Shown here piece by piece: positions 1-64,000 of a DNA stretch of 64,000 nucleotides. The notes beneath the pieces are model-generated. The model ran no database searches. It saw nothing but the letters and a program-made list of their open reading frames with translations, and was not told the DNA's origin. The position numbers and the translations under genes are program-made. The stretch spans positions 21,762,001-21,826,000 of the forward strand of contig OZ024742.1 in the NCBI GenBank assembly GCA_964016885.1, in the 5' to 3' direction. How positions within the stretch are numbered: position 1 is the first letter of the stretch; each line of letters starts with the position of its first letter. This DNA is from Eledone cirrhosa. Lineage: Eukaryota.

Positions 1-1786
1 TGGAGAGGCATCTTCGCAAGGAGGGGCCCGAGTGGGCCAGGTGGATGTCGAGGCCCTCCCTCCGTATAGCCTTGCGGATAGCGTTGGTGGTTTTCTCGCC
101 CAGGTGTGGCATTTTAAGGAAGCACTTGCCGTGGGTGCCTCTCTGTCTCTTGTGCCTGGCGTCTCCCACTCTGTCTGTGAGCGAGGTAGGGTACCCGTTC
201 GTCTCCAGCCGCCTCGAGGAATCGCTTGGTATGAGTGACACCATTCGCGGGATCGCTGCATCTGTTTTTGATTCGCGCGATCTCGTTCGTGATGTATCAT
301 CTTTTGGCACTGTTAGGGAGGGCGGACTTGTAGTGAACGAACAGGTACCTGCAGGCTGCCTTTCGGTAGAAGTTGCAGTGGATCCCTCCCTGTTCCGTGA
401 TGTTGATTCGGAAGTCGAGGAGGGCAAGTGCCACGTCTTCGTTGGGGTTTTCAACACTGAAGTCAATGTTCTCGTCGGTGTTGTTGAACGTCTCATAGAT
501 TCTCTTCGCCGTGTCTTGGGAAGATGTGAGGATGAGGATATCATCCACGTACCTTGAGAAAAAGGCGACGGCGTTGGGGTGGCAGGCGTCGAGTGCCTTG
601 CGCTCGAGGTTGTCCATGTAAGAGACCGCTAGCACACCTTATAGGCTTGATCCCATGGGCAATCCCGAGGTTTGTTGGTATGTTTGGTCAAGGAATCCGA
701 AGTAGGTGTTGTCGACGACGATGGATAGGAGTTGGTGGATGTCAGTGGTGGTGAGTCCGAAGCAGTGTAGGTCGGTGGATTGGACGCGTTCCAGCTGTAT
801 ATTGACGGCCGGGAGTGCCGGGACCGAGGTGTAGAGAGCGACTACATCAAGGCTGAAGGCATATCTGTTATTCCTTCTGGTGTCGGGATCCATTTGATGC
901 AGGCGCTTCAACACCTCCTCGGAGCTGTTAACGTGTCCCGGCAAGGTGTCTAAGATGGGTTTGAGTATTCTGGCTAGGAGCCATGAAATTTTGTAGAGTG
1001 GTACCTCCACGCTCGATAGAATGGGCCTGATCTTCAGGTCGGGTCCCTGCTTGTGTGTTTTCACGAGGTGGTAGAAGGTGGGTCGTCTGCTGTTCCTCGT
1101 GAGGATGTTGTATCTCAGCTTCTTCGGGAGCTTCCGCCGGTCGCAGATGTTGGTCCAGGCGGCGTTGATGTGCTCTTCTATCTGCGGGTGATTCCCGTGA
1201 CCTTGGAGTAGAGGTTGTCATCGTCAAGGTGTTGGAGGGCCAGGGTGTTGTAGGCCTCTCTGCTGATGACGCAGAATTCTTTTCCCTTGTCGGAGGGGAG
1301 ATAGATGAGGTTCTTCGATTTTAGGTTGGAGAGAGTGGTGAGTTGTGATTTGGTGAGATTATGTGTTGTGCGTGTGTGTGTGTGTGTTTGTGAAGTATAT
1401 CCGAGATGGAGTGTTTTAGCCTGATGAGTTTAGTGTCGAGTTCGTGGTTGGTGGGTCGGGGGTGGAGTGGGTTGTCGGGGTGGTAAGTGGGGAACTTGAG
1501 GTGGGTTGCGTGGGCGCTGTTATTTTCTGTGGCACTGTTGATGGCGGTCACCCATTTAAGTTGGTAAGCGGCTCGACAAAAGTTGGCCTCGATGTTGAGT
1601 TTGAGTCTGTCGTAGAGACGTTGTGAAACGATGAACTTGGGTCCGAGGTGTAGGAGTTTCAGCTCGTCGCTCGTGAGAGTGCCGGTTCGGTCGGTGACCA
1701 GGTGCGTCGCATCGTTGAGGTGTGGCTCGGTGTTGGTGGATGCGGCGGTAGCGGTTGTTAAGTTGTTGTTTTCCACGTGGTTCTGG
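1..1786 (-). pseudogene. Penelope-like element, RT-coding arm (disrupted), continues beyond window start
   Basis: Minus-strand ORF pieces with PLE RT motifs: KIRPILS, FSLDVVALYTSVP, YQQTSGLPMGSSL, FFSRYVDDILIL, LDFRI, FYRK. In-frame stop at ~636-638 and frameshifts. Bases 1-325 are the reverse complement of ~1786-2110. Confidence 0.92.
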
Positions 1787-2473
1787 TCCGCCCTCCCTAA
1801 CAGTGCCAAAAGAGGATACATCACGAACGTGATCGCGCGAATCAAAAATAGATGCAGCGATCCCGCGAGTGGTATCACTCATACCAAGCGATTCCTCGAG
1901 GTGCTGGAGACGAACGGGTACCCTACCTCGCTCACAGACAGAGTGGGAGACGCCAGGCACAAAAGACAGAGAGGCACCCAAGGAAAGTGCTTCCTTAAAA
2001 TGCAACACCTGGGCGAAAATACCACCAACGCTATCCGCAAGGCTATACGGAGGGAGGGCCTCGACATCCACCTGGCCCACTCGGGCCCCTCCCTGCGAAG
2101 ATTCCTCTCCAGGAAACCCGGGAAATCTACTGACGCGTGCTCCCTCAGGGACTGCTCGATACGCCATGCGAACTGTTGCCTACGCACATACGTCGTGTAT
2201 AAGATAGAATGTGACAGGTGCAACCAATACTATATAGGTAGCACAATCCGACCTTTGCACATCCGGATCAAGGAACACACTAAAACTAGGGCCTCGTCTT
2301 TCCGGAAACACTTAGACAAATGCGGAAACAAAGACGGAAGGCCCATTGTCACAATTCTAGCGACTGAAAGTAACGTCGGCACGTTACGTATCAAAGCAGC
2401 GCTTTTTATCAAACGCCTGGCACCGCAAATAAACAATCGATCCGAGAGAAGCGAAATGAGGTGGCTGATTTAA
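1787..2473 (+). CDS. Inverted, 5'-truncated PLE ORF: post-RT region + GIY-YIG endonuclease
   Basis: SALPNSAKRG...CSLRDC...CLRTYVVYKIECDRCNQYYIGSTIRPLHIRIKEH...ALFIKRLAPQIN; open to the stop at 2473. The N-terminal part of listed ORF 1631..2473 is antisense RT sequence across the inversion junction. Confidence 0.9.
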   Translation, partial: SALPNSAKRGYITNVIARIKNRCSDPASGITHTKRFLEVLETNGYPTSLTDRVGDARHKRQRGTQGKCFLKMQHLGENTTNAIRKAIRREGLDIHLAHSGPSLRRFLSRKPGKSTDACSLRDCSIRHANCCLRTYVVYKIECDRCNQYYIGSTIRPLHIRIKEHTKTRASSFRKHLDKCGNKDGRPIVTILATESNVGTLRIKAALFIKRLAPQINNRSERSEMRWLI

Positions 2474-3157
2474 GTTAACAAACGATGCAGCAACACACGC
2501 ACACACATACACAAACGAGACAACTACACACGCACACGCACACACACACAGTAGCATTCCACCATACGACCATACTACACTGCCAATACAGAGGAACAAG
2601 GCAACAACACACGCACACACACACACACACTCAAGCGAGACAACAACACACATACACACACACACACAGTAACATTTAACAAACAGGCAGAGAATAGACT
2701 GACAGCTAGCGCCACCCCACTCCCACATTCGGCCGCTGACCTCTGCCAGACCGACCCCATTTCACGCGCACGCGCGCTCTGCCGAATACCTCAGATATTC
2801 AAAACAACAAACAGCGGACGACGCGTTTCGCACCTTTCCGACAGACAACCTTTCCCCCACCCCGGAAAAAAACCCGGTTGATGGATGTGAATCCGAAATA
2901 TATAGGGACCATTAAATCTCTCCCAAGGTAACTCTCTCTCGTGTTGTTATTTTTATTTTATCCTTTATACTCTTTCCTTCATTCCTCTACACGTCTTATA
3001 CACACCACGCATCTCAACGTACACCCACTTACATCTCTCTCTCCACCACCGGATCTTGTTACCCGGAGATTTACCCATTTGCATTGTCGAGGCTTCCAAA
3101 CGACTTAAAGATATTTACCTATTATTCCACAATACTTCAAGCAAACTTCAATACTCT

Positions 3158-3158
<1 letters not shown>
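2474..3158 (+). mobile_element. PLE 3' UTR / pseudo-LTR with degenerate minimal hammerhead (~2873-2909)
   Basis: CA-rich UTR, then cc-CGGTTGA-t-ggat-gtga-atcc-GAAA-tata-TA-gg (two mismatches to CTGANGA); ends in (TA)n at ~3159. Confidence 0.7.
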
Positions 3159-3199
<41 letters not shown>

Positions 3200-3202
<3 letters not shown>

Positions 3203-3390
3203 TTAATATAGATGAGATTCTACAGGACTAGAACTGTTTCATTCATTAGAAATCATCAGGATTCCTGATGATTTCTAATGAATGAAACAGTTCTAGTCCT
3301 GTAGAATCTCATCTATATTAAAATGTTATACTCTGCTATGTATTGAGTACCTTACTTACTGTGGTTACCTCCGATTCAACCCGGAATAAC

Positions 3391-9218: not shown

Positions 9219-9288
9219 TATTTTATTATGCGCATTTCGAAAACAACATCATCCTGGGACAAAAATTGTGTTCTCATCAGATAAAATA
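9219..9288 (-). ncRNA. Type I hammerhead motif, stem III TGCGCA
   Basis: Minus strand: tattttat-CTGATGA-gaacaca...tgttgttttc-GAAA-tgcgca-TA-ataaaata. Confidence 0.8.
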
Positions 9289-13629: not shown

Positions 13630-13677
<48 letters not shown>

Positions 13678-14006
13678 CAGGTACACATACATATATGCAC
13701 GTATCAGTTTAGCGGACGCTTATTATAACGCCGCTTTGTTCGTTTGTAAACAAACTGAACAGCCTGAATTTGTATGCCGTACGGTGTTAAGGCAACCACG
13801 TCACCTTTTTGTTCAACACTGACACAGGAACGATGTACTAGTTTCAAGCTTGTTAGCTATCATCAGCACCGTATACCCATCTGCCAGATAGTTGAACGTT
13901 CGGCATAAAAATTCAGGCTGTTCAGTTTGTTTACAAACGAACAAAGCGGCGTTATAATAAGCGTCCGCTAAACTGATACGTGCATATATGTATGTGTACC
14001 TGTATG

Positions 14007-14039
<33 letters not shown>

Positions 14040-14047
<8 letters not shown>

Positions 14048-14224
14048 CGTAAAATAAGAAAAATTTTTTAAAAAATTTTTTAAAAAAATTTTCTTATTTT
14101 ACGTCTTTTATATTATTGTTCTGCATTCTCCTGCATCGAACCACCTAGGTACTATGACATAACCTGTGTATTTGCTGGCATTGGCGTACATCTGTGCGCT
14201 TATGTTAGTAGATATATTAAATTA

Positions 14225-14228
<4 letters not shown>
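14040..14228 (+). mobile_element. Small fold-back insertion nested in the internal (TA)n of family C
   Basis: Arms ataaaagacgtaaaataagaaaa / ttttcttattttacgtcttttat plus a ~115-bp tail, flanked by (TA)n. Confidence 0.7.
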
Positions 14229-14290
<62 letters not shown>

Positions 14291-14528
14291 CATGCTACTG
14301 TACGTCTGTATACATATATGTATGTACGTATACACACACACTTACATTTAAGTAAGTGCCGTACTAAGAGTGAGAAATGAAATTTCGTTTTCATTTTATT
14401 TCAACTTATCGTTTTCGGTATGCCTGACCGACTTAGCTCACTCGATATGCAAATTAGGCTGCTCAGCCGTTAATTTTCATAAGGAAAGTATATACTTTCG
14501 AACGTTCAACTATCTGGCAGATGGGTAT

Positions 14529-14571
14529 ACGGTGCTGATGATAGCTAACAAGCCTGAAACTAGTACATCGT
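14529..14571 (+). ncRNA. Minimal type I hammerhead (family C); mirror copy at 13830-13872 (-)
   Basis: acggtg-CTGATGA-t agct aaca agc(c/t) t-GAAA-ctag-TA-catcgt; GUA triplet. Confidence 0.85.
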
Positions 14572-14723
14572 TCCTGTGTCAGTGTTGAACAAAAAGGTGA
14601 CGTGGTTGCCTTAACACCGTACGGCATAAAAATTCAGGCTGTTCAGTTTGTTTACAAACGAACAAAGCGGCGTTATAATAAGCGTCCGCTAAACTGATAC
14701 GTGCATATATGTATGTGTACCTG

Positions 14724-14797
<74 letters not shown>

Positions 14798-14911
14798 CAT
14801 GCTGCTGTACGTCTGTATACATATATGTATGTACGTATACACACATACTTACATTTAAGTAAGTGCCGTACTAAGAGTGAGAAATGAAATTTCGTTTTCA
14901 TTTTATTTCAA

Positions 14912-14970
<59 letters not shown>

Positions 14971-14973
<3 letters not shown>

Positions 14974-17880: not shown

Positions 17881-17959
<79 letters not shown>

Positions 17960-18004
17960 TAAAGAAATAATGAATAAACAATTCCTTATATTAAACAAAA
18001 AAAG

Positions 18005-18159
18005 TTCATTATTTAACGATCGTTTCTAGGGTATATATGTGTTATAATTGGTATGCATATTCAACAGATCTATGTACAAAATTATACAAAATTATACAAA
18101 TTATCAAGATTAAATATACATACCTAACACATATATACGCCGTCTTCAGAAATAATGAA
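18005..18159 (-). ncRNA. Hammerhead with ~115-nt stem II, 3' pLTR copy
   Basis: ttcattattt-CTGAAGA-c ggcgtatatatgtgtta...taacacatatataccc ta-GAAA-cgatcg-TT-aaataatgaa. Confidence 0.82.
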
Positions 18160-18989
18160 GTATATTTATTGATAATAACAACAATTCAAAATATCAGTTC
18201 AAAATTGACCAATGAAAACACAAAGGGTTAAAAGCAGTTCGGTGTGTGTATATACATGTAAAATCCTTACACATATTTTACAATAATGTGTGTATAATTT
18301 GTATGCGCATACTAAAAAGATGGATGCAAACACAAAATTTCAAGGTTAATATCTCTGTAAGCTTAATGCGCTGATAAGATGCGCATTGATACTTATGGAG
18401 TCAAGCATATAAATATATTTTTTCATACTCACACATATCAGTATAATCACACATACATGCGCGTATATGCATAAATATACACATAACCACGAACATACAA
18501 ACACACACACTCCCCCACTCACATTTATATATGTGGATATAAAATCATAAGCACATAGAAATTAAGTCACTCACATAAAACACTGGCACACACATTTCAA
18601 GATCAAGATACAGAAATTAGGTGGGAGGGGGGGAGGGGTCAGTATTCAATTGTCTGAGCAGACTGCCTAATATAAATGTATCTATAAATTAAGAAAAATA
18701 AAAAAATAAAAACAATAAAATATAATAAATATAATATAATGTACATACACATACAGATATATATACACATACATACATGTACGCGCACATAGAGATATTT
18801 ACGCATACACACATACACACATACATATACAGTCATACACACACATACACTTACACGAACATACACATACACATATAAAAAGATATATATATACACACAC
18901 TCACACGCGCAACACATACACACATACACATATATATAAAAAATAGATAATAAAGATATATATCCATATATATATATATACACACACAC

Positions 18990-19032
<43 letters not shown>

Positions 19033-19121
19033 TATACATATACATACACATACATCTAAATATACATACACATACATACACACATACATGTACATACATG
19101 TACATACATATACGCACATCG

Positions 19122-19171
<50 letters not shown>

Positions 19172-19491
19172 TCACATAGACATAAAGATACATACACACA
19201 CAACTTACATACACACGTATATATATATATATATAGATGTACCTTCATACATAGAATTAGATATATAATCATACTTACATATGCACCTACTTATACTCAT
19301 ATAAATAAATACATACGCTTCCATATATGTGTATATACATAAAAAACAATACAACCTCACCAAACTCAGACATACAAATGAAAATAATAATAAAAAGGCA
19401 TATGTATATACATACACACACGCATTAATAGAGAAATATATATATACACACATACATACACATATATATATACATACACACACACATATAT

Positions 19492-19546
<55 letters not shown>

Positions 19547-19550
19547 TAGA

Positions 19551-19589
<39 letters not shown>

Positions 19590-19681
19590 ATATATATCCA
19601 CACACTCATACCACCATAAATACACATACAAACACCCACATATATATATATATATATATATCTACATACACACACGTATAC

Positions 19682-19716
<35 letters not shown>

Positions 19717-20025
19717 CACACACATAAAAAACAGACATGCACATATATATATATATATATATTTCATTACTCTTACATATACACATATTATATATACATA
19801 CACAACCTCACTTATACACATATACACATAAGTTATATTACAATAATAATAAAGAATAATATACATATATATATATACATATACATATATATACATATAT
19901 ATATATACATACATACATACACATACATACATACACATAAATATATACATACATAAATACACACATACGAATAAAGACATATATTCACACATAGACACAT
20001 ATATATATATATATATATATATATC

Positions 20026-20063
<38 letters not shown>

Positions 20064-21213
20064 CACATACACACACACACACACACACAGACACACATAC
20101 ACACTCACATATATATATATATATATGTGTATGTGAGTGTGCGCACATACACATATATACACACACACATACAAACACACACAAACACATACATATGCAT
20201 ACGTGCACACACACACACATATATCACATAGATACGAAGATAAACATATAAATAGAGAGACATACATATATATACACAACACATATACACATACATACAT
20301 ACACGCATATACATATACATACATATATACACATATATATATTCCTATATATACAAGCATACACATACATACACATATATACACATATATACACATATAC
20401 ATACAACACATTCACATACACATACATATATAATACATATATATACATATATATACATACATATGTATGTACAATCATATATACACACACAATCTTACAT
20501 TCATATTTGCATGCTCATATATGTATTTTTATATTTAGATATAAATACCGAAACCTATATAGACACCTACCTACATATATATTCATACATAGACGCTTAC
20601 AAATACAGATGATAATAGTATGGGGGAAAGGGGGGGTTTGGAGAAGGGGATCAAAGTAAATATATGTTTCAAGAAACATATAATATTTTCCGTATCTTAA
20701 TTCAATGTATGTTCTTACATATTTTCAGTGCTAGGAAATACGAAATCTATGCATCTCAAAATAAATAAGTATACCATTAATCATATGTTAACTAAACCAA
20801 AGATAGTCAACATATTGATTTCTAAGGTGTAAATTAGTTAGGTTTATAATATTTGAAGCAGAATTTTGAAGTCAAACAGTAGTAGATTATTAATTACATT
20901 ATAACTAAATAAAAGTTAATAACGTTATGGTATCAATATTAGGAGATGAATTTAGTAATAGGGAAAAGAAACCCAAATAAAAATAAAATAAAGTATTACA
21001 TCGGTAGTAGCATATAAATTATATGTTAACTAAATTAAAAATTATATATTCATTTCAATAGTATACGTTAATTAGTATATGTTAATTAGGTACACAATAC
21101 ATAAAGCAGATATTGTATTTCATCAATAGCATAATATAATTATATGTAAATAGAAATCAAAATTAATACGCATACATATACATATACATACACATACACA
21201 TATACATACATAT

Positions 21214-21252
<39 letters not shown>

Positions 21253-21788
21253 TACATATATACACACATATACATACATACAGATACACATACACAGCAC
21301 ACACATATACATATACATATACATATACATATCTTTTTCAAAAAATTGCACAGAATATATTAACTAGGTATATATCCAAAACACATCCCATTCTATGATT
21401 ACATGACATTCTGCAATTCGTCTGTATAAGGATACTAATTTTAAGCAAATTAAAATTAAAGTTTTAGGTTGATTAAAACTAAAACCAAATAATAAATATA
21501 TTTCCAAAATGTATATTAATTAGGTCTATAATACTAAAAATTCTTTCTCCGTCATTGGATACATGATATTATTTTGTTATATTTTATCTGTAAAAGAATT
21601 ATAATAAAAGGTTTAAATAAATTAAAATTAATCTATAAATTAAATTACTAAGTATATATTAGTAATATTTAAAGGTTTTTCACAATTTATGATTACATAA
21701 TATTTTCTCATCTGTAATAAAATATTAATTAAATTAAATTTATAGGTTAACTAACATTTAAATTAAATTAATTTCTAGAATAATGTTA

Positions 21789-24230
21789 TTAATTAGGTTT
21801 ATAATATTTAAATGTTTTTTTTAATTTATGATTACACGATATAATTAATTCCTGTCGTTTATTTAATAAGATATCCTTAGACTTCATTATTTCAAATAGT
21901 TCTTGGGAACATAATCTACATTCCTTTCTATTATTTTGATAAGGGGTGGCTCTTTTGAGCACACTCCAGGTCAAATCATATTTTATATTCTTATTTTTAT
22001 AACTATTGATTTTTTCTGCTAGAGATGTTGTATTAGCCAGTGCGGCATTTTTAAAACTATGTTTGTGGGTATTAAACCTTGTCTTAAAATTGTTAGAGGT
22101 AGCTCCTATATATGAGCAAATAGAATCTTTAGTTTTAACATTACATTTATAGACTATGTTGTTAACAAGACAATTCCCTTTTAATGGGCAGTTTGTTTTG
22201 TTTCTACAGTTACATCCTTTCGTTAATTCTGTATTTGAGGAGATATTATTGTTAATTTGATGTACTGGTGGTATACTTATGGTTTTCTTACATTTATATG
22301 CATTATATGCACTTATATTTTGTTTTATGTTATTTGTTGTAGAGTATGAGAATTTAACTGTAGACCTATTTAAGATTTGATGGTATTTGTGGTTTGGCGG
22401 GAAGTTTTTCTCAAGGATATAAAAAAATTTTTTAGCAATATTATCCTTAACTTGTAAATTAAAAGGAGCATTATACCAAGTAACTCGTCTATTACGGTTT
22501 CTATGTTGTTTATTATTTTTATTATTTTTATAGGTTGTATCATGATTTTTACTAGGAGGATTAATGTTAATGATCTCACCACAACTATTTTTAGTTATAT
22601 TTGTAGATTTAGGTGTTTTATCTTTTTTATTAGGAGTTTTATTATTAATATTTATTATAGTTGTATGATGAGTAGTTTTTTGAGGGTTACTATACTTTAT
22701 ATTAGAAGATTTAGTATTTTGGGGTATATTGTGGGTGGCATTTAGGTGTGTACTTTTCATTTGGTGTTTGTTGGTAATATTATGCTGTATGCTTTCAGTA
22801 TTTTTAGTAGAAGGTATATACTCTAATCTATTTTTGTGGCCACTTCTATCTAGAGCTTCATTATAAAAGGTCGCATTTTTATCAAATACATCTTGGTTAG
22901 AAGAAAGGTTAGAAATTCTAAGTGATATATTATATGCAAGGTTTTTAAGGATAGATTTAGGGTGATTAGATTGTGAGTGTATGTAATGTAAGTTTTGGTT
23001 AGGTTTATGGTAAGGTTGGTATATACCCGTAGCTAAATCTAAAGTTATATCTAGGAAATTTACTACTTTACTTGTTTTTTCAAAAGTAATATTAAGATTA
23101 TAATAGTCTTTAAGGAAAGTTCTAATATGTTTTTTGTTTTTTTCGATTTCTGAAAGGCTAAGGTTGTTAGAAAGAAGAAGACAGTCATCACGATATAAAC
23201 CACCTTTGAGGTGGGGAAAAGAGGCATTTATGTTGAAAAGGAGAAAGAGGCCCACAAGATCAGTAATTTGGGCGGAATCGCTTGAACCCATAGTAATATC
23301 AAAAAGATTACTGTATGTGTTTCTGGTCCAGTATTCATTCTGAAATTCAATAAGTGTTAGTCTAGCATGTGTAATAATGTTAATGTCATCCGAAGTTAAA
23401 TTAGATCTATTTTTAGCAAATATTAATGCTTTGTTCAGGAGTATGGGTGATATAGAAGAATAGTAATTATCTATATCAAATTGTAGGAAAGAAGCAGAAG
23501 ATTTACACCTAATATTTTTAAACCAATTAATTACCTGGGAGGTGTTTTCCCAGAGTGGTAAAATAACGTATTTTCTTATTTGTGGGATGACTCTATCTAA
23601 AATTTTTTTGCTAATTATTCCAATATCTGATTTGGAGGGACATATAAGTCTAATAGAAGGATTAGAGTTAAAGTTAGATTTGTGATCTTTCAGGTTGAAG
23701 TGTGGTCTTTTCAATGCCAAAGGTTCAGTTCTATCTTCAATGTTTAGTTTTTTTACTATGTTGTGTGTTTTGTTGTTGATGTTGGTGAGTGACACATTAT
23801 TAGATTTTTTATAATTTTTTCTGAGTTCTTTATATATGAACTCATTATAATGTTCAATATCCATATGATACAAGTTACCAGTTTTGTCCGAGTGGACATG
23901 GATTTTTTTAGACTTTTTTAGGTCCAATAGGGTAGAATCAAGGTCCTTTTGAAAGACGGATTTATACTTTTTAAATTTGAGGTGTTTAATTAAATTAAAA
24001 AGGTCTTTCTCGAAGTCTTCAAGTAAAAAGTTGTGTGGTGGATTCTTGTAAGTATTGAAATCATACATATATTTCCGATCTGCTTGTTTAGATTTTCTAT
24101 CGAAGTGGTAGGCTCTCCATCTAACCCTTCTGATAAAATTATTAGTTTTCTGAATCATAAGGAGTAAGAAGTCGTCCTTAGAAGGTATTGGTATGTTTTT
24201 CAAGGAGGTTCCTAAATATTGTTTTTCCAT
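21789..24230 (-). CDS. Naiad-type PLE polyprotein: RT + Cys-rich linker + GIY-YIG endonuclease (~813 aa from ATG at 24230)
   Basis: N-terminal SLKNIPIP..FIRRVRWRAYHF; RT motifs FDIDNYYSSI, DITMGSSDSAQITDLVG, LYRDD, NFLDITL, YIHSQSNHP; CNCRNKTNCPLKGNC-IVY...YIG, CRLC, LLNKRQEL..C.H; uninterrupted. Confidence 0.95.
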   Translation of the reverse strand: MEKQYLGTSLKNIPIPSKDDFLLLMIQKTNNFIRRVRWRAYHFDRKSKQADRKYMYDFNTYKNPPHNFLLEDFEKDLFNLIKHLKFKKYKSVFQKDLDSTLLDLKKSKKIHVHSDKTGNLYHMDIEHYNEFIYKELRKNYKKSNNVSLTNINNKTHNIVKKLNIEDRTEPLALKRPHFNLKDHKSNFNSNPSIRLICPSKSDIGIISKKILDRVIPQIRKYVILPLWENTSQVINWFKNIRCKSSASFLQFDIDNYYSSISPILLNKALIFAKNRSNLTSDDINIITHARLTLIEFQNEYWTRNTYSNLFDITMGSSDSAQITDLVGLFLLFNINASFPHLKGGLYRDDCLLLSNNLSLSEIEKNKKHIRTFLKDYYNLNITFEKTSKVVNFLDITLDLATGIYQPYHKPNQNLHYIHSQSNHPKSILKNLAYNISLRISNLSSNQDVFDKNATFYNEALDRSGHKNRLEYIPSTKNTESIQHNITNKHQMKSTHLNATHNIPQNTKSSNIKYSNPQKTTHHTTIININNKTPNKKDKTPKSTNITKNSCGEIININPPSKNHDTTYKNNKNNKQHRNRNRRVTWYNAPFNLQVKDNIAKKFFYILEKNFPPNHKYHQILNRSTVKFSYSTTNNIKQNISAYNAYKCKKTISIPPVHQINNNISSNTELTKGCNCRNKTNCPLKGNCLVNNIVYKCNVKTKDSICSYIGATSNNFKTRFNTHKHSFKNAALANTTSLAEKINSYKNKNIKYDLTWSVLKRATPYQNNRKECRLCSQELFEIMKSKDILLNKRQELIISCNHKLKKTFKYYKPN

Positions 24231-24573
24231 TGTGATATGGATGATGGACAATTGAAAGAGCTCAACTAAATGTATATGGGTTTACAAAATCATACATATA
24301 TATATGTTTATACATAAATATAAAATTAATACACACATACAGTACAAAAATACGAATATTTCCGTGAAAATAGGAGCAAAATTATGTAGATAAATCTACC
24401 AAGAGTTTACGGTAGTGTCCAATCCGTATGAAGAACTCAATGTATTCCGGATATCATGGAAAGAAGAGATGTAATGAAAATCCACTTTCGGTGAAAGATA
24501 AACGGTATACAGAGTCAAGATAAAATATTAAAGAAATAATGAATAAACAATTCCTTATATTAAACAAAAAAAG

Positions 24574-24728
24574 TTCATTATTTAACGATCGTTTCTAGGG
24601 TATATATGTGTTATAATTGGTATGCATATTCAACAGATCTATGTACAAAATTATACAAAATTATACAAATTATCAAGATTAAATATACATACCTAACACA
24701 TATATACGCCGTCTTCAGAAATAATGAA
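24574..24728 (-). ncRNA. Hammerhead with ~115-nt stem II, 5' pLTR copy
   Basis: Identical to 18005-18159; lies ~345 nt upstream of the ORF ATG. Confidence 0.82.
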
Positions 24729-25558
24729 GTATATTTATTGATAATAACAACAATTCAAAATATCAGTTCAAAATTGACCAATGAAAACACAAAGGGTTAA
24801 AAGCAGTTCGGTGTGTGTATATACATGTAAAATCCTTACACATATTTTACAATAATGTGTGTATAATTTGTATGCGCATACTAAAAAGATGGATGCAAAC
24901 ACAAAATTTCAAGGTTAATATCTCTGTAAGCTTAATGCGCTGATAAGATGCGCATTGATACTTATGGAGTCAAGCATATAAATATATTTTTTCATACTCA
25001 CACATATCAGTATAATCACACATACATGCGCGTATATGCATAAATATACACATAACCACGAACATACAAACACACACACTCCCCCACTCACATTTATATA
25101 TGTGGATATAAAATCATAAGCACATAGAAATTAAGTCACTCACATAAAACACTGGCACACACATTTCAAGATCAAGATACAGAAATTAGGTGGGAGGGGG
25201 GGAGGGGTCAGTATTCAATTGTCTGAGCAGACTGCCTAATATAAATGTATCTATAAATTAAGAAAAATAAAAAAATAAAAACAATAAAATATAATAAATA
25301 TAATATAATGTACATACACATACAGATATATATACACATACATACATGTACGCGCACATAGAGATATTTACGCATACACACATACACACATACATATACA
25401 GTCATACACACACATACACTTACACGAACATACACATACACATATAAAAAGATATATATATACACACACTCACACGCGCAACACATACACACATACACAT
25501 ATATATAAAAAATAGATAATAAAGATATATATCCATATATATATATATACACACACAC

Positions 25559-25599
<41 letters not shown>

Positions 25600-25688
25600 T
25601 ATACATATACATACACATACATCTAAATATACATACACATACATACACACATACATGTACATACATGTACATACATATACGCACATCG

Positions 25689-25736
<48 letters not shown>

Positions 25737-26056
25737 TCACATAGACATAAAGATACATACACACACAACTTACATACACACGTATATATATATATATATA
25801 GATGTACCTTCATACATAGAATTAGATATATAATCATACATACATATGCACCTACTTATACTCATATAAATAAATACATACGCTTCCATATATGTGTATA
25901 TACATAAAAAACAATACAACCTCACCAAACTCAGACATACAAATGAAAATAATAATAAAAAGGCATATGTATATACATACACACACGCATTAATAGAGAA
26001 ATATATATATACACACATACATACACATATATATATACATACACACACACATATAT

Positions 26057-26111
<55 letters not shown>

Positions 26112-26115
26112 TAGA

Positions 26116-26154
<39 letters not shown>

Positions 26155-26244
26155 ATATATATCCACACACTCATACCACCATAAATACACATACAAACAC
26201 CCACATGTATATATATATATATATCTACATACACACACGTATAC

Positions 26245-26279
<35 letters not shown>

Positions 26280-26588
26280 CACACACATAAAAAACAGACA
26301 TGCACATATATATATATATATATATTTCATTACTCTTACATATACACATATTATATATACATACACAACCTCACTTATACACATATACACATAAGTTATA
26401 TTACAATAATAATAAAGAATAATATACATATATATATATACATATACATATATATACATATATATATATACATACATACATACACATACATACATACACA
26501 TAAATATATACATACATAAATACACACATACGAATAAAGACATATATTCACACATAGACACACATATATATATATATATATATATATC

Positions 26589-26626
<38 letters not shown>

Positions 26627-27776
26627 CACATACACACACACACACACACACAGACACACATACACACTCACATATATATATATATATATGTGTATGTGAG
26701 TGTGCGCACATACACATATATACACACACACATACAAACACACACAAACACATACATATGCATACGTGCACACACACACACATATATCACATAGATACGA
26801 AGATAAACATATAAATAGAGAGACATACATATATATACACAACACATATACACATACATACATACACGCATATACATATACATACATATATACACATATA
26901 TATATTCCTATATATACAAGCATACACATACATACACATATATACACATATATACACATATACATACAACACATTCACATACACATACATATATAATACA
27001 TATATATACATATATATACATACATATGTATGTACAATCATATATACACACACAATCTTACATTCATATTTGCATGCTCATATATGTATTTTTATATTTA
27101 GATATAAATACCGAAACCTATATAGACACCTACCTACATATATATTCATACATAGACGCTTACAAATACAGATGATAATAGTATGGGGGAAAGGGGGGGT
27201 TTGGAGAAGGGGATCAAAGTAAATATATGTTTCAAGAAACATATAATATTTTCCGTATCTTAATTCAATGTATGTTCTTACATATTTTCAGTGCTAGGAA
27301 ATACGAAATCTATGCATCTCAAAATAAATAAGTATACCATTAATCATATGTTAACTAAACCAAAGATAGTCAACATATTGATTTCTAAGGTGTAAATTAG
27401 TTAGGTTTATAATATTTGAAGCAGAATTTTGAAGTCAAACAGTAGTAGATTATTAATTACATTATAACTAAATAAAAGTTAATAACGTTATGGTATCAAT
27501 ATTAGGAGATGAATTTAGTAATAGGGAAAAGAAACCCAAATAAAAATAAAATAAAGTATTACATCGGTAGTAGCATATAAATTATATGTTAACTAAATTA
27601 AAAATTATATATTCATTTCAATAGTATACGTTAATTAGTATATGTTAATTAGGTACACAATACATAAAGCAGATATTGTATTTCATCAATAGCATAATAT
27701 AATTATATGCAAATAGAAATCAAAATTAATACGCATACATATACATATACATACACATACACATATACATACATAT

Positions 27777-27815
<39 letters not shown>

Positions 27816-28461
27816 TACATATATACACACATATACATACATACAGATACACATACACAACACACACATATACATATACATATACATATACATATCTTTT
27901 TCAAAAAATTGCACAGAATATATTAACTAGGTATATATCCAAAACACATCCCATTCTATGATTACATGACATTCTGCAATTCGTCTGTATAAGGATACTA
28001 ATTTTAAGCAAATTAAAATTAAAGTTTTAGGTTGATTAAAACTAAAACCAAATAATAAATATATTTCCAAAATGTATATTAATTAGGTCTATAATACTAA
28101 AAATTCTTTCTCCGTCATTGGATACATGATATTATTTTGTTATATTTTATCTGTAAAAGAATTATAATAAGAATTTTTAGTATTATAGACCTAATTAATA
28201 TACATTTTGGAAATATATTTATTATTTGGTTTTAGTTTTAATCAACCTAAAACTTTAATTTTAATTTGCTTAAAATTAGTATCCTTATACAGACGAATTG
28301 CAGAATGTCATGTAATCATAGAATGGGATGTGTTTTGGATATATACCTAGTTAATATATTCTGTGCAATTTTTTGAAAAAGATATGTATATGTATATGTA
28401 TATGTATATGTGTGTGTTGTGTATGTGTATCTGTATGTATGTATATGTGTGTATATATGTA

Positions 28462-28498
<37 letters not shown>

Positions 28499-29650
28499 AT
28501 ATGTATGTATATGTGTATGTGTATGTATATGTATATGTATGCGTATTAATTTTGATTTCTATTTGCATATAATTATATTATGCTATTGATGAAATACAAT
28601 ATCTGCTTTATGTATTGTGTACCTAATTAACATATACTAATTAACGTATACTATTGAAATGAATATATAATTTTTAATTTAGTTAACATATAATTTATAT
28701 GCTACTACCGATGTAATACTTTATTTTATTTTTATTTGGGTTTCTTTTCCCTATTACTAAATTCATCTCCTAATATTGATACCATAACGTTATTAACTTT
28801 TATTTAGTTATAATGTAATTAATAATCTACTACTGTTTGACTTCAAAATTCTGCTTCAAATATTATAAACCTAACTAATTTACACCTTAGAAATCAATAT
28901 GTTGACTATCTTTGGTTTAGTTAACATATGATTAATGGTATACTTATTTATTTTGAGATGCATAGATTTCGTATTTCCTAGCACTGAAAATATGTAAGAA
29001 CATACATTGAATTAAGATACGGAAAATATTATATGTTTCTTGAAACATATATTTACTTTGATCCCCTTCTCCAAACCCCCCCTTTCCCCCATACTATTAT
29101 CATCTGTATTTGTAAGCGTCTATGTATGAATATATATGTAGGTAGGTGTCTATATAGGTTTCGGTATTTATATCTAAATATAAAAATACATATATGAGCA
29201 TGCAAATATGAATGTAAGATTGTGTGTGTATATATGATTGTACATACATATGTATGTATATATATGTATATATATGTATTATATATGTATGTGTATGTGA
29301 ATGTGTTGTATGTATATGTGTATATATGTGTATATATGTGTATGTATGTGTATGCTTGTGTATATATAGGAATATATATATGTGTATATATGTATGTATA
29401 TGTATATGCGTGTATGTATGTATGTGTATATGTGTTGTGTATATATATGTATGTCTCTCTATTTATATGTTTATCTTCGTATCTATGTGATATATGTGTG
29501 TGTGTGTGCACGTATGCATATGTATGTGTTTGTGTGTGTTTGTATGTGTGTGTGTATATATGTGTATGTGCGCACACTCACATACACATATATATATATA
29601 TATATGTGAGTGTGTATGTGTGTCTGTGTGTGTGTGTGTGTGTGTATGTG

Positions 29651-29688
<38 letters not shown>

Positions 29689-29997
29689 GATATATATATA
29701 TATATATATATATATGTGTCTATGTGTGAATATATGTCTTTATTCGTATGTGTGTATTTATGTATGTATATATTTATGTGTATGTATGTATGTGTATGTA
29801 TGTATGTATATATATATATGTATATATATGTATATGTATATATATATATGTATATTATTCTTTATTATTATTGTAATATAACTTATGTGTATATGTGTAT
29901 AAGTGAGGTTGTGTATGTATATATAATATGTGTATATGTAAGAGTAATGAAATATATATATATATATATATGTGCATGTCTGTTTTTTATGTGTGTG

Positions 29998-30032
<35 letters not shown>

Positions 30033-30122
30033 GTATACGTGTGTGTATGTAGATATATATATATATATACATGTGGGTGTTTGTATGTGTATTTATGGTG
30101 GTATGAGTGTGTGGATATATAT

Positions 30123-30161
<39 letters not shown>

Positions 30162-30165
30162 TCTA

Positions 30166-30220
<55 letters not shown>

Positions 30221-30551
30221 ATATATGTGTGTGTGTATGTATATATATATGTGTATGTATGTGTGTATATATATATTTCTCTATTAATGCGTGTGTGTAT
30301 GTATATACATATGCCTTTTTATTATTTTTTTATTATTATTTTCATTTGTATGTCTGAGTTTGGTGAGGTTGTATTGTTTTTTATGTATATACACATATAT
30401 GGAAGCGTATGTATTTATTTATATGAGTATAAGTAGGTGCATATGTATGTATGATTATATATCTAATTCTATGTATGAAAGTACATCTATATATATATAT
30501 ATATACGTGTGTATGTAAGTTGTGTGTGTATGTATCTTTATGTCTATGTGA

Positions 30552-30601
<50 letters not shown>

Positions 30602-30690
30602 CGATGTGCGTATATGTATGTACATGTATGTACATGTATGTGTGTATGTATGTGTATGTATATTTAGATGTATGTGTATGTATATGTATA

Positions 30691-30731
<41 letters not shown>

Positions 30732-31561
30732 GTGTGTGTGTATATATATATATATGGATATATATCTTTATTATCTATTTTTTATATATATGTGTATGTG
30801 TGTATGTGTTGCGCGTGTGAGTGTGTGTATATATATATCTTTTTATATGTGTATGTGTATGTTCGTGTAAGTGTATGTGTGTGTATGACTGTATATGTAT
30901 GTGTGTATGTGTGTATGCGTAAATATCTCTATGTGCGCGTACATGTATGTATGTGTATATATATCTGTATGTGTATGTACATTATATTATATTTATTATA
31001 TTTTATTGTTTTTATTTTTTTATTTTTCTTAATTTATAGATACATTTATATTAGGCAGTCTGCTCAGACAATTGAATACTGACCCCTCCCCCCCTCCCAC
31101 CTAATTTCTGTATCTTGATCTTGAAATGTGTGTGCCAGTGTTTTATGTGAGTGACTTAATTTCTATGTGCTTATGATTTTATATCCACATATATAAATGT
31201 GAGTGGGGGAGTGTGTGTGTTTGTATGTTCGTGGTTATGTGTATATTTATGCATATACGCGCATGTATGTGTGATTATACTGATATGTGTGAGTATGAAA
31301 AAATATATTTATATGCTTGACTCCATAAGTATCAATGCGCATCTTATCAGCGCATTAAGCTTACAGAGATATTAACCTTGAAATTTTGTGTTTGCATCCA
31401 TCTTTTTAGTATGCGCATACAAATTATACACACATTATTGTAAAATATGTGTAAGGATTTTACATGTATATACACACACCGAACTGCTTTTAACCCTTTG
31501 TGTTTTCATTGGTCAATTTTGAACTGATATTTTGAATTGTTGTTATTATCAATAAATATAC

Positions 31562-31716
31562 TTCATTATTTCTGAAGACGGCGTATATATGTGTTAGGTA
31601 TGTATATTTAATCTTGATAATTTGTATAATTTTGTATAATTTTGTACATAGATCTGTTGAATATGCATACCAATTATAACACATATATACCCTAGAAACG
31701 ATCGTTAAATAATGAA
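31562..31716 (+). ncRNA. Hammerhead with ~115-nt stem II, inverted pLTR copy
   Basis: Same motif on the plus strand; 10-bp stem I; GUU triplet. Confidence 0.82.
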
Positions 31717-31901
31717 CTTTTTTTGTTTAATATAAGGAATTGTTTATTCATTATTTCTTTAATATTTTATCTTGACTCTGTATACCGTTTATCTTTCACC
31801 GAAAGTGGATTTTCATTACATCTCTTCTTTCCATGATATCCGGAATACATTGAGTTCTTCATACGGATTGGACACTACCGTAAACTCTTGGTAGATTTAT
31901 C

Positions 31902-31974
<73 letters not shown>

Positions 31975-42702: not shown

Positions 42703-42707
<5 letters not shown>

Positions 42708-43927
42708 TATGTATACGTACATACATATATGTATACAGACGTACAGTAGTATGTATATATATTTACATACATGCACACATATATATATATATATGTACGT
42801 ATGGATTCACCGAACATTTATTATAATGCTCGGTGTGTTTGTAAACAAACATCCCGAATTAAGCCGTACAGTGTCTAGCAACCATCGTTGCTCATTTGTT
42901 CAACCCTGACAAAGGTACGCTGTACTCGTTTCAAGCTTATTAGCAACGTATACCTTCCTGCCAGATGATTGAACGTCTGAAAGTATATACTTTCCTTATG
43001 CATATTAACGGCTGAGCAGCCTAATTTGCATATCGTTTCATTTTTTCCGTTTATCGTTTTCTGTACCTCGTCGATTAACTCACTCGATATGCAAATTAGG
43101 CTGCTCATCCGTTAATATGCATAAGGAAAGTATATATTTCAGACGTTCAATCATCTGACAGGAAGGTATACGTTGCTGACGATAACTAATAAGCTTGAAA
43201 CTAGTACAGCGTTCCTTTGTCAGGGTTGACCAAATGAGCAACGATGGTTGCTAGACACTGTACGGCTTAATTCGGGATGTTTGTTAACAAACACACCGAG
43301 CATTATAATAAATGTTCGGTGAATCCATACGTACATATATATATATATATATGTGTGCATCTATGTATATATATATATACATACTACTGTACGTCTGTAT
43401 ACATAAATGTATGTACGTATACATACTTATATTTAAGTAACAGCCGTACTAAGAGTGAGAAATGAAATTTCGTTTCATTTTTTCCGTTTATCGTTTTCGG
43501 TACCCCGGCCGATTAACTCACTCGATATGCAAATTAGGCTGCTCAGCCGTTAATATGCATAAGGAAAGTATATACTTTCAGACGTTCAATCATCTGGCAA
43601 GAAGGTACACGTTGCAGACGATAGCTAATAAGCTTGAAACTAGTACAGCGTTCCTTTGTCAGGGTTGAACATATGAGCAAGCAACGATGGTAGCTAGACA
43701 CTGACGGCTTAATTCGGGATGTTTGTTTACAAACACACCGAGCATTATAATAAATGTTCGGTGAATCCATACGTACATATATATATATATATATGTGTGC
43801 ATCTATGTATATATATATATACATACTACTGTACGTCTGTATACATATATGTATGTACGTATACATACTTATATTTAAGTAACAGCCGTACAAAGAGTGA
43901 GAAATGAAATTTCGTTTCATTTTTTCC

Positions 43928-43931
<4 letters not shown>
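42703..43931 (+). mobile_element. Family C retrozyme-like element, second subfamily: inverted arm + two tandem monomers
   Basis: Inverted arm 42703-43035; monomers 43053-43489 (437 bp) and 43490-43931 (442 bp); (TA)n flanks. Confidence 0.88.
43170..43212 (+). ncRNA. Minimal hammerhead (family C); second copy 43609-43651 has CAGACGA
   Basis: acgttg-CTGACGA-taactaataagctt-GAAA-ctag-TA-cagcgt. Confidence 0.8.
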
Positions 43932-43963
<32 letters not shown>

Positions 43964-44074: not shown

Positions 44075-45930
44075 ATAATAATGAAATTATTGTGTAAACT
44101 ACTCAGGTGCACTACAACTCGTCAAAGGTGCATGTATAGTACATAGAATAATATACAAATGTCAGGGAAGTGAATAGTGTATGAGTCATGATATACATGT
44201 GTGTATGTGTATGGAGGGGGAACATTAGGTGTAGTGTTGGCGAATCTCAGGAAGCATGGAGGTTTTAAAGGATGCAGAGTCTCGACAGCAAACAACTGAT
44301 GCAGGTTGTTTCATGCTTCAACAACTCGGAGCGTGAAAAACTGTTTCCGAAAGTAATGGGAGCTGTGCTGTTTTCTGACTGTGTGGGCATGCTCACTTCT
44401 GTTAAACACATGGAAATTAAAAAGGTACTCAGGGTTGTTGTTGGCAAGATGGTTAATAATTTTGTGGGTGTTTACCAAGTCAATTGCCAGATATCGGAGC
44501 TTCAATGTCCAGGGGAGCAAGGCGTTCAGAGTGTGGTAGATGCCTGATGGAGGATATTCGCTTGGTTGCACGTCTCTGAACAGTTTCCAGGCGGTCAATG
44601 TTTTGAGCAAGGTAGGGTTTCCAAACTGGTGATGCAAATTCTAAGTGTGGCCGCACCATCGCTATGTGCAGCTTTAAATAGATAACTGGAGAGCGGATGA
44701 CAAAGGTCTTGCTGAGTGATGCGTGATGCTAAGACACCCTCGGCCTTCTTGACAATTTTAGAGACGTGCTTCGTCCAACGCAAATCGCTGCTGACCGTAA
44801 TGCCCAGGTCACGTTCACAAGAAGACTTCTTGATATTAGTGTTGTTGAGGGAGTATGTGAACGCTGGGATTTTACTCCCAAAATGCATGGTGGTTCAATT
44901 TTCCACAGCTAGCTTGAGTTGCCAGTCTGTGATCCATTGTTGCATTGTGTCCAGGTCAGATTGCAGGCAAGATCTATAGTGTTCAGGATCTGTCCTTTTT
45001 ATCTCAAGGTACAGCTTGATATCATCTGCATATTTCAGTACTGTGGCATTCTTTAAGTTGGAATCTATGTCATTAATATATGCCACAAACAAAACGGGGC
45101 CAAGAACAGATCCCTGTGGTACCCCAGATAACATCTCATATAGTGAGGAATGCTGTCCTAGAACCGTGACTACCTCTCTTCGACTGAGAATGAAGGACTT
45201 CAGCCAGTTGAAAATATCATCCTTCACACCCATTGCAGAGGGTTTTGCAATAAGCATTTTGTGTGGCACAGAATTGAAAGCTTTAGCAAAGTCAATCAGT
45301 GATGCAGGTGATGTCTTCAAGAAACTCAATAAGTTGATCACAGCAGTTGGAGTTAGGGATAAATCAAAATTGCGAGGGCCGGATAAGACTGTGAGAGTTC
45401 CAGAAGTCCCAAAGTGTTTCTCTGACACAGGATTCCATCAGTTTGGCAATGCAGTTAGTAAGACTGACTGGATAGTTCACAGAGGAATGAGACTGGCAGT
45501 TTTCTATTGTTCTGGAGTAGCACTGTTGTGTAGACAGAATAGGAGGAAGCGTGATAGCTGGTGCAGAAGGATGTACCCACCACGTTTAATAAGCAGGTAC
45601 ATAACACCATCAAGACCAAGAGAGGCATGGTTGCGTTTATTTTTAAGGTGACGTCGCAGCATTGCAGGTGTAAATTCCATAGTTGTAATAGAATCCGGTG
45701 TCATAGGTGGCGGAGACGGTACACTCTGGTCTTCAATAGTGAAAATGCCTGCATAGCGTTCAGCAATGAGCTCTGTGCATTCCTTGGGGTTGTCAGTAAC
45801 CTGGATTGTGTGGGGATTGCGAAGAGGACCAACTGGAGAGTGGGGCCTCTGATTTGAGTGAACATACTTCCAAAGCACCTTACTGTCAGGGTTGGTCGCT
45901 ATGCGCTGCTCAAATTGAAGCACTGCCTAA
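44075..45930 (-). pseudogene. CR1-group LINE, 5'-truncated, frameshifted RT
   Basis: DFAKAFNSVPH, SGVPQGSVLGPVLF, YADDIKLY, LQSDLD, ERDLGI, FFTLRVVEA; 3' end in an (ATT)n-like tail near 44075-44090. Confidence 0.9.
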
Positions 45931-63300: not shown

Positions 63301-64000
63301 TGGAAGAGTCGTTAGAACGTCGGATAGAATGACAGAGTCGTTAGAACGTTGGATAGAATGGCCGAGTGGTTAGAACGTTAGATAGAATGGCAGAGTGGTT
63401 AGAACGTTAGATAGAATGACTGAGTCGTTAGAACGTCTGATAGAATGGCCGAGTCGTTAGAACGTCGGATAGAATGGCCGAGTCGTTCGAACGTTATCTA
63501 GAATGGCTGAGTCGTCAGAAGTCGGATAGAATGGCCGAGTACTTAGAATGTCTGATAAAATGGCAGAGTCGTTAGAAAGTTAGACAGAATGGCAGAGTCG
63601 TTAGAACATCGGATAGAATGGCAGAGTCGTTAGAACGTCGGATGGAATGGCTGAGTCGTTAGAAGGTTGGATAGAATAGCAGAGTGGTTAGAACGTCGGA
63701 TAGAATGGCAGAGTCCTTAGAATGTGAGATAGAATGGCAGAGTCGTTAGAACGTCGGATAGAATGGAAGAGTCGTTAGAACGTTAGATAGAATGGCAGAG
63801 TCGTTAGAACGTCGGATAGAATGGCAGAGTCGTTAGAACGTTAGATAGAATAGCATAGTCAGTAGAACGTTAGATAATATGGCAGAGTCGTTGGAACGTT
63901 AGATAGAATGCCAAAGTCGATAGAACGTTAGATAGTAGGGCAGAGTGGTTAGAACGTCGGATAGAATGGCAGAGTCGTTAGTACGTGGGATAGGATGGCA
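57362..64000 (+). repeat. 29-bp tandem satellite (~229 units in window) derived from the SINE/tRNA A-box head; runs off the window end
   Basis: Consensus TGGCAGAGTCGTTAGAACGTCGGATAGAA; first units start at 57362, 57391 and 57420; matches 36875-36903. Confidence 0.97.

Follow-up and report, generated by a model that had tools for sequence, protein, structure and literature searches.

How does a short element with a ribozyme and no ORF come to be dispersed among (TA)n microsatellites, frequently with one arm inverted? The question is raised by a locus in a 64,000-nt stretch of the Eledone cirrhosa genome (assembly GCA_964016885.1, contig OZ024742.1, positions 21,762,001 to 21,826,000), here called the window, to which all coordinates without a locus label refer. 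A preliminary description made from the sequence had proposed a retrozyme-like element mobilized by PLE machinery. We examined the copies in the window, further insertions elsewhere in the genome and the PLEs that might serve them.

Two loci of one family in the window

The first locus (13632-14971) belongs to subfamily A. Its full monomer (14408-14914, plus strand) measures 507 bp, has a GC content of 34% and is predicted to form a branched RNA fold; re-reading the sequence bore out these coordinates as well as the GUA triplet at 14563-14565, both given in the preliminary description. A canonical type I hammerhead motif (14529-14571, plus strand) comprises stem I (acggtg/catcgt), the core CUGAUGA, GAAA, a U.U pair as the base of stem II and a 1-bp stem III with a palindromic loop, and cleavage is predicted after 14565. 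A private C at 14554 breaks one stem II pair in this copy. Further downstream lies an internal (TA)n tract (14724-14794), present in the monomers examined at variable length, followed by a hairpin (14845-14860, plus strand) whose loop contains the short (S) 3' end site (~14853-14857). A 57-nt tail (14858-14914, plus strand) extends from S to the long (L) 3' end site, at which the right (TA)n target tract (14914-14971) is joined.

Upstream of the monomer, the earlier reading of a partial monomer preceded by an inverted arm held as architecture. The left (TA)n tract (13632-13677), where the inverted arm ends in the internal TA tract of its own unit, is followed by that arm (13678-13902, minus strand), which matches the reverse complement of 14499-14723 at all but 2 of 225 positions. 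The arm meets a sense partial unit (13897-14042, plus strand) at the palindrome gaacgttc. This unit is 5'-truncated, lacks the hammerhead and matches 14618-14724 before entering its TA tract; its remainder (14219-14407, plus strand) consists of TA tract and 3' segment including the tail. Two features had been missed. The inverted arm contains a second, intact canonical type I hammerhead motif (13830-13872, minus strand) equal to the subfamily A majority sequence, and the TA tract of the partial unit is interrupted by a 176-bp insert (14043-14218) of a different dispersed repeat. This nested repeat has matches in the sampled loci L094, L135 and L143 and resembles the 3' end of another TA-targeting element with a short inverted and a longer direct arm. 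The locus thus has only one sense ribozyme, and its outer ends were typed as TA+L.

A diverged subfamily had been reported to repeat the architecture at 42703-43931, and we recovered it there with two units at 73.5% identity to the first locus. This second locus (subfamily B, 42703-43962) starts with an inverted arm (42703-43035, minus strand) that ends at the S site and has lost its hammerhead core by deletion. Unit 1 (43053-43489, plus strand) retains an intact core with one stem II mismatch (43170-43212, plus strand), while the core of unit 2 (43490-43931, plus strand) is mutated to CAGACGA, leaving an intact core at one of three positions. At the L site, unit 2 gives way to (TA)n (43931-43962), so the outer ends are S+L. 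The units measure 437-442 bp and are 95% alike. The stem I difference noted earlier between the subfamilies (acggtg/catcgt versus acgttg/cagcgt) amounts to a G.U pair replaced by U.G, which preserves pairing. The absence of an ORF was likewise upheld, the longest ATG ORFs (73 aa in unit A, 125 aa in unit B) both being antisense and running partly through TA repeats. Since no locus in the window has two intact ribozymes on the same strand, neither could release a unit-length RNA by two cuts, and both are probably dead-end products. Elsewhere, the window holds a broken LINE-type reverse transcriptase remnant (44311-45926, minus strand) and a 29-bp satellite (57362-64000; 229 copies, 84% matches) that reaches the window edge.

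Ribozyme class, copy number and RNA fold

The hammerhead of the family has a helix I of 6 bp plus an extension, a helix II of 4 bp and a helix III of 1-2 bp with a palindromic loop, rather than the long helix II, short helix I and missing helix III of the minimal class. By the definitions of canonical and minimal hammerheads in passages of PMC4209133, which describe those of metazoan pLTRs as minimal, its sequence places it in the canonical type I class; the initial label 'minimal' was wrong. Each full unit has such a hammerhead, with individual copies decaying, those in the window included. A local Rfam scan gave HH9 at 14.8 bits, below the gathering score of 52, and a scan of the whole window returned only microsatellite-driven matches among the 150 of 286 matches listed.

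To estimate abundance, we searched 3.0 Gb of genome sequence in 1,796 contigs with reversed patterns as controls. A 35-nt core pattern had 22,909 exact matches, a subfamily A 38-mer 10,308 and a 28-nt tail pattern 16,992, with no match for any reversed control. Forty evenly spaced 10-kb stretches (400 kb) contained five insertions, which extrapolates to ~37,000 genome-wide (Poisson range ~12,000-87,000). Counting all hammerhead families, 400 kb of evenly spaced DNA held 38 motifs and its shuffles none; together with the core matches (22,909 versus 0), this excludes chance as the source of the motif. The 38 motifs also suggest a genome-wide number of hammerhead motifs on the order of 10^5. Other families lie in the window at 3265 and 16340 (plus strand) and at 9280, 9840 and 10357 (minus strand), as well as in L121-L160. 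One related family shares the extended stem I motif (L146:8700-10000, L173:1700-3300 and L071); its L173 copy is short, lies between (TA)n flanks and has an inverted arm, and its L146 copy is joined to a Hydra-like endonuclease fragment.

The best subfamily A copies, from loci picked for their resemblance to the query, match the window copy at 99-100% identity, which points to a recent spread of this subfamily; the best subfamily B copies, picked in the same way, reach 95-96%. One hairpin is absent from a third group of variants. The catalytic core is fixed and stem I is compensated across subfamilies that differ by about 20-26%. Units range from 422 to 583 bp, mostly 420-500, with GC below 50%, no apparent LTR structure and no internal domain between repeats. 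A search for tRNA found none, and Pol III A or B boxes are absent from the sense strand; the octamer ATGCAAAT is conserved but forms part of a stem and would at most be a candidate promoter. Contigs from four sequencing runs indicate presence only, including that of subfamily B-like relatives in two other organisms.

Compared with dinucleotide shuffles and with the microsatellite removed, the predicted fold had z scores of -4.1 and -6.1 (reverse strand, -1.7 and -4.4), and folding as a circle cut at the ribozyme gave -7.1 to -9.5. Among 22 hand-picked copies, both sides had changed at 11 of 86 consensus pairs, a covariation count that is inflated by relatedness of the copies. Across 70 named pairs, the paired fraction of cells is 98.1%, compared with 33-42% after sliding the partners. 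Double-change cells outnumbered those of all 500 shuffles, while the number of pairs with a double change did not lie above the shuffles (296 of 500). By this evidence, a branched RNA fold is kept across subfamilies through compensatory changes. Predicted stems span both the ribozyme cut site and the L unit junction, and the pairing probability of stem I in predicted circles ranges from 0.13 to 0.94, depending on position and copy.

Insertion ends, inversions and the search for a partner PLE

We parsed 130 insertions, comprising 74 inverted, 51 direct and 5 complex ones. Outer ends occur at two fixed sites, S, in the hairpin loop, and L, which lies 55-57 nt downstream. Almost all of them join (TA)n, flanks that would mask any target-site duplication (>4 bp when present, by the retrozyme criterion). 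Where both ends of an inverted insertion could be typed as S or L, one of each was found in 51 of 52 cases (about 50 of 51 independent ones, as two L259 insertions resemble a local duplicate), against a single S+S and no L+L. A subset of 66 insertions, either consecutive along one contig or random, yielded L+S in 24 of 24 inverted insertions typed at both ends. The remaining 22 of the 74 inverted insertions, among them the first locus of the window, end in internal TA, at the locus edge or elsewhere. Direct insertions terminate at L in 25 cases and at S in 19.

The arms of the inverted insertions bear on their origin. Among the 51 L+S insertions, the longer arm is the L arm as often as the S arm (25 each), and 14 have arms of which neither is contained in the other. 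This pattern argues against fold-back copying as the general cause of inversion and fits two separate priming events. Although 13 of 89 5' ends fall at the L site, we make no claim from this apparent excess, since several of them begin within the final 28 nt of the tail, a stretch below the alignment cut-off. The family also displays variable 5' truncation, inverted 5'-truncated arms and a tail at one end. PLE tails are often found at one end only, as described in sections of Craig et al. 2021 (PMC8557442), and parts of Frangieh et al. 2024 (PMC11167929) report that a PLE protein in vitro cleaves and extends both strands, with two internal start sites bounding the tail. The S/L two-end pattern matches this tail between two internal reverse-transcription starts. 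That PLE machinery mobilizes the family, initially argued from inversion and (TA)n target, is more strongly supported by the two-site ends with one of each in 51 of 52. A similar A(C/T)ATTT motif is found at the short 3' ends of the family, the related hammerhead family, PLE-1 and the Hydra-like PLE of the window, and may mark a common start-site preference.

PLE candidates abound in this genome, numbering 10,595 for a GIY-YIG family, 13,698 for the endonuclease of PLE-1 and 64,647 for that of the Hydra-like PLE, many of the latter with an intact 830-aa ORF. In the window, PLE-1 (297-3160) has a C-terminal GIY-YIG, an inverted arrangement and a ~690-bp 3' region with two 3' ends into (TA)n; the best 150 of its 13,698 candidates show 90-95% protein identity, apart from the window copy. 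The Hydra-like element (17951-31907), which resembles the Hydra clade, is young, with a ~6.6-kb unit, tandem and inverted arms and a 137-bp tail. Its 830-aa ORF is intact (21789-24281, minus strand), and many identical genomic copies keep the full ORF.

We read 100 PLE loci, including Neptune-like, Hydra-like and other C-terminal GIY-YIG families. The first two labels stand for what we take these families to be from reading their motifs against PLE clade definitions rather than from a phylogeny. A Neptune-like ORF of the genome had its closest named relative in Octopus bimaculoides (75% identity, 69% of the query covered), with named bivalve matches at 46-49%, which lent indirect support to the cephalopod attribution of the preliminary description and pointed to an octopod host. 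One Neptune-like family (L164, L165, L170 and L176) has its own hammerhead ~380 bp after the ORF, in which the base of stem II is likewise U.U and stem III is palindromic. In the Hydra-like unit of the window (17951-31907) we found no canonical hammerhead, whereas PMC8557442, in its sections on hammerheads, calls them universal in Hydra elements.

These loci bear on an alternative, namely that the copies are solo or partial pseudo-LTRs (pLTRs) of an unsampled autonomous PLE. The element occurred in seven of the 100 PLE loci (L085, L092, L116, L118, L120, L171 and L172), never as the terminal repeat of the family. No terminal repeat shared with the element was present in the GIY-YIG, PLE-1 and Hydra-like endonuclease loci or in 20 long-ORF loci, and the PLE families read have 3' regions of their own. 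No recurring junction with a reverse transcriptase or GIY-YIG ORF was seen in the 130 insertions. Copies flanking a PLE ORF as ordinary pLTRs, the case named in the preliminary description as refuting its reading, were absent from both samples. An autonomous partner with a matching 3' end was not found either in the 100 loci, which were drawn from more than 10,000 candidates. This last ratio leaves room for an unsampled PLE, and Xenopus retrozymes are often homologous to pLTRs according to parts of a recent preprint (bioRxiv 10.64898/2026.07.22.740005). Direct joins to PLE fragments without intervening TA, in L252:3200-6900, L116:2400-2600 and L040:2046-2936, could also be taken in favor of a pLTR origin, yet the joins vary in family and orientation, LINE and other repeats are joined as well, and no ORF neighbor recurs. 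Moreover, units lie head to tail at one fixed junction, up to nine of them with no ORF, and carry canonical hammerheads in place of the minimal ones reported for metazoan pLTRs in passages of PMC4209133. We therefore regard a pLTR origin as very unlikely. The joins in L252, L116 and L040 are possible template-switch chimeras. As partner clues, the chimeric joins in L116, L040, L146 and L252 were set aside, being single cases from different families and unenriched. Adjacency likewise failed to single out the Hydra-like PLE, as a distance of at most 700 bp from one of its ORF pieces was seen for 7 of 130 insertions compared to 8.2% of random positions.

The RNA template and relation to known systems

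Insertions contain up to nine full head-to-tail units with one fixed junction. Among 134 5' ends in the hammerhead-bearing segment, none lay within 4 nt of the cut, a count biased by the selection of most loci for an intact ribozyme. As 3' ends also do not fall at the cut and arrays span it, a linear cut monomer is an unlikely template, leaving a circle or an uncut multimer. Within single insertions, one haplotype may extend across both arms, as in M216 (0.45% within versus 3.1-4.2% to the nearest outside copy), M227 (0.52% versus 1.2-2.4%) and M206 (0.0% versus 1.7%); distinctive haplotypes are also common to both arms in L138 and to the tandem units in L171. Pooled variant-sharing fractions are dominated by one array and were left out of the argument. 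Mixed haplotypes occur in L005, L017, L033, L037 and one unit of L024, and L270 and L268 show a two-unit and a three-unit periodicity, respectively, which a single monomer circle alone does not explain.

Such heterogeneity would suit a non-autonomous PLE copied from uncut read-through multimers of mixed source arrays, with the same two-site priming but neither circle nor cutting. The 5' ends avoiding the cut fit this account equally well, and slow cleavage of monomers would be expected from the weak stem III and the U.U pair. Parts of PMC11167929 further report that insertion by an Anolis PLE was unaffected by hammerhead mutants and that uncut RNA was the main substrate; with cutting dispensable for the PLE tested in vitro, the genomic pattern does not require a circle. 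Of the Xenopus retrozyme dimers described in sections of the preprint, one in nine was cleaved in vitro. On the other hand, the fixed core and compensated stem I over ~20-26% divergence point to source copies in which the ribozyme is under selection, the predicted fold pairs across cut site and L junction as a closed circle would, and circular RNA has been demonstrated for coral, mussel and axolotl retrozymes (PMC7229834, in the portions available). By analogy with these systems and given the fixed core, a circle appears favored, and we consider copying from multimers less likely.

Arrays and inversions might instead have arisen at the DNA level, through satellite expansion and palindrome fold-back, with no PLE-type priming. 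The palindromic junction in the window would fit this origin, as would later unequal exchange for the higher-order periodicity of L268 and L270. It leaves unexplained how tens of thousands of (TA)n sites came to be occupied, as well as the two fixed 3' ends, the variable 5' truncation, the L+S count of 51 of 52 and the 14 of 51 insertions with non-containing arms. As a general mechanism it is largely refuted and has, in our judgment, a very small chance, though some arrays may have lengthened after insertion.

On balance, we favor a high-copy, non-coding retrozyme that is likely inserted in trans by a PLE reverse transcriptase/endonuclease, likely copying circular RNA. In this process, tandem source arrays would be transcribed through several units and paired hammerheads would cut the transcript into 420-500-nt units, the 1-bp stem III with its palindromic loop predicting a dimer fold. 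The long stem I extension could then hold the ends for ligation by a host ligase, as in other retrozymes. At the target, the PLE protein would nick both (TA)n strands, and reverse transcription would start from the S hairpin loop and from L, a U-rich linker 55-57 nt downstream. One start would give a direct insertion, and one start per strand, at S and L, an inverted pair of which only one arm carries the tail. Copying that runs round more than once would produce arrays of one to nine units with intact ribozymes. More tentatively, we propose that a PLE dimer uses the ribozyme-made circle as template and primes its two target strands at S and L, one each, so that a single rolling-circle, twin-primed reaction could yield tail, inversion and array.

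Sequence-level tests identify the family as a non-LTR retrozyme, as the initial class call had it. Like the metazoan non-LTR retrozymes described in parts of PMC7229834, its units have a canonical type I hammerhead each, are arranged head to tail, lack an ORF, are low in GC and possess a strongly self-paired predicted fold. Two features of the ribozyme are each known from an axolotl hammerhead, the 1-bp palindromic helix III from HHR_Amex1 and the U.U helix II base from HHR_Amex2; in axolotl retrozymes a short palindromic-loop helix III and this base go with dimer cleavage, according to the same portions. Units are longer here (~420-580 versus 150-450 bp) and include an internal (TA)n hairpin domain; inverted arms and microsatellite targets go unmentioned in the main-text parts of that study, and its retrozymes have demonstrated expression and circles, whereas a circle is a proposal for the present family.

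A PLE link of retrozymes was proposed in sections of PMC7229834 and argued in those of the preprint by Li, Clavereau and Pollet (bioRxiv 10.64898/2026.07.22.740005), whose consensus lengths of 51-972 bp cover our unit and whose conclusion on PLE machinery we share. Their evidence, in the portions available, is co-occurrence and pLTR homology, mainly in vertebrates and not in mollusks, while ours is insertion-end anatomy with no homologous pLTR found. Re-entry of retrozymes into the genome, previously argued from co-occurrence and terminal-repeat homology, is thus approached here through a PLE insertion signature over 130 insertions. In open-licence literature, we found no cephalopod retrozyme and no rule of one end of each type, though one may be contained in supplements or repeat databases. 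For the giant squid, one paper gives a count of 235 Rfam hammerhead matches, with no further analysis in the portions available. As a short, young and very abundant non-coding substrate, the family allows direct tests of whether the template is a circle or a multimer and of how PLE inversions arise. If circle and twin-priming are true, it would offer direct genomic evidence for integration of an animal retrozyme circle and a model substrate of 450 nt on which to study the PLE cycle.

Like PLEs, as characterized in parts of PMC8557442 and PMC11167929, the family forms partial tandems with an inverted copy truncated at the 5' end, prefers (TA)n targets, often has its tail at only one end and has end sites corresponding to two internal reverse-transcription starts, differing in the absence of an ORF, a tail of 55-57 instead of 30-40 nt and a canonical rather than minimal hammerhead. 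It also resembles non-autonomous Chlamys PLEs such as MRC1, described in sections of PMC8557442 as non-coding, multicopy head-to-tail arrays inserted by PLE. Those elements generally resemble the 3' end of an autonomous family and mostly lack canonical hammerheads, in contrast to the hammerhead-bearing units here, for which no partner was found in the 100 PLE loci. The family is a new one within the non-LTR retrozymes, while its class and its PLE link are not new.
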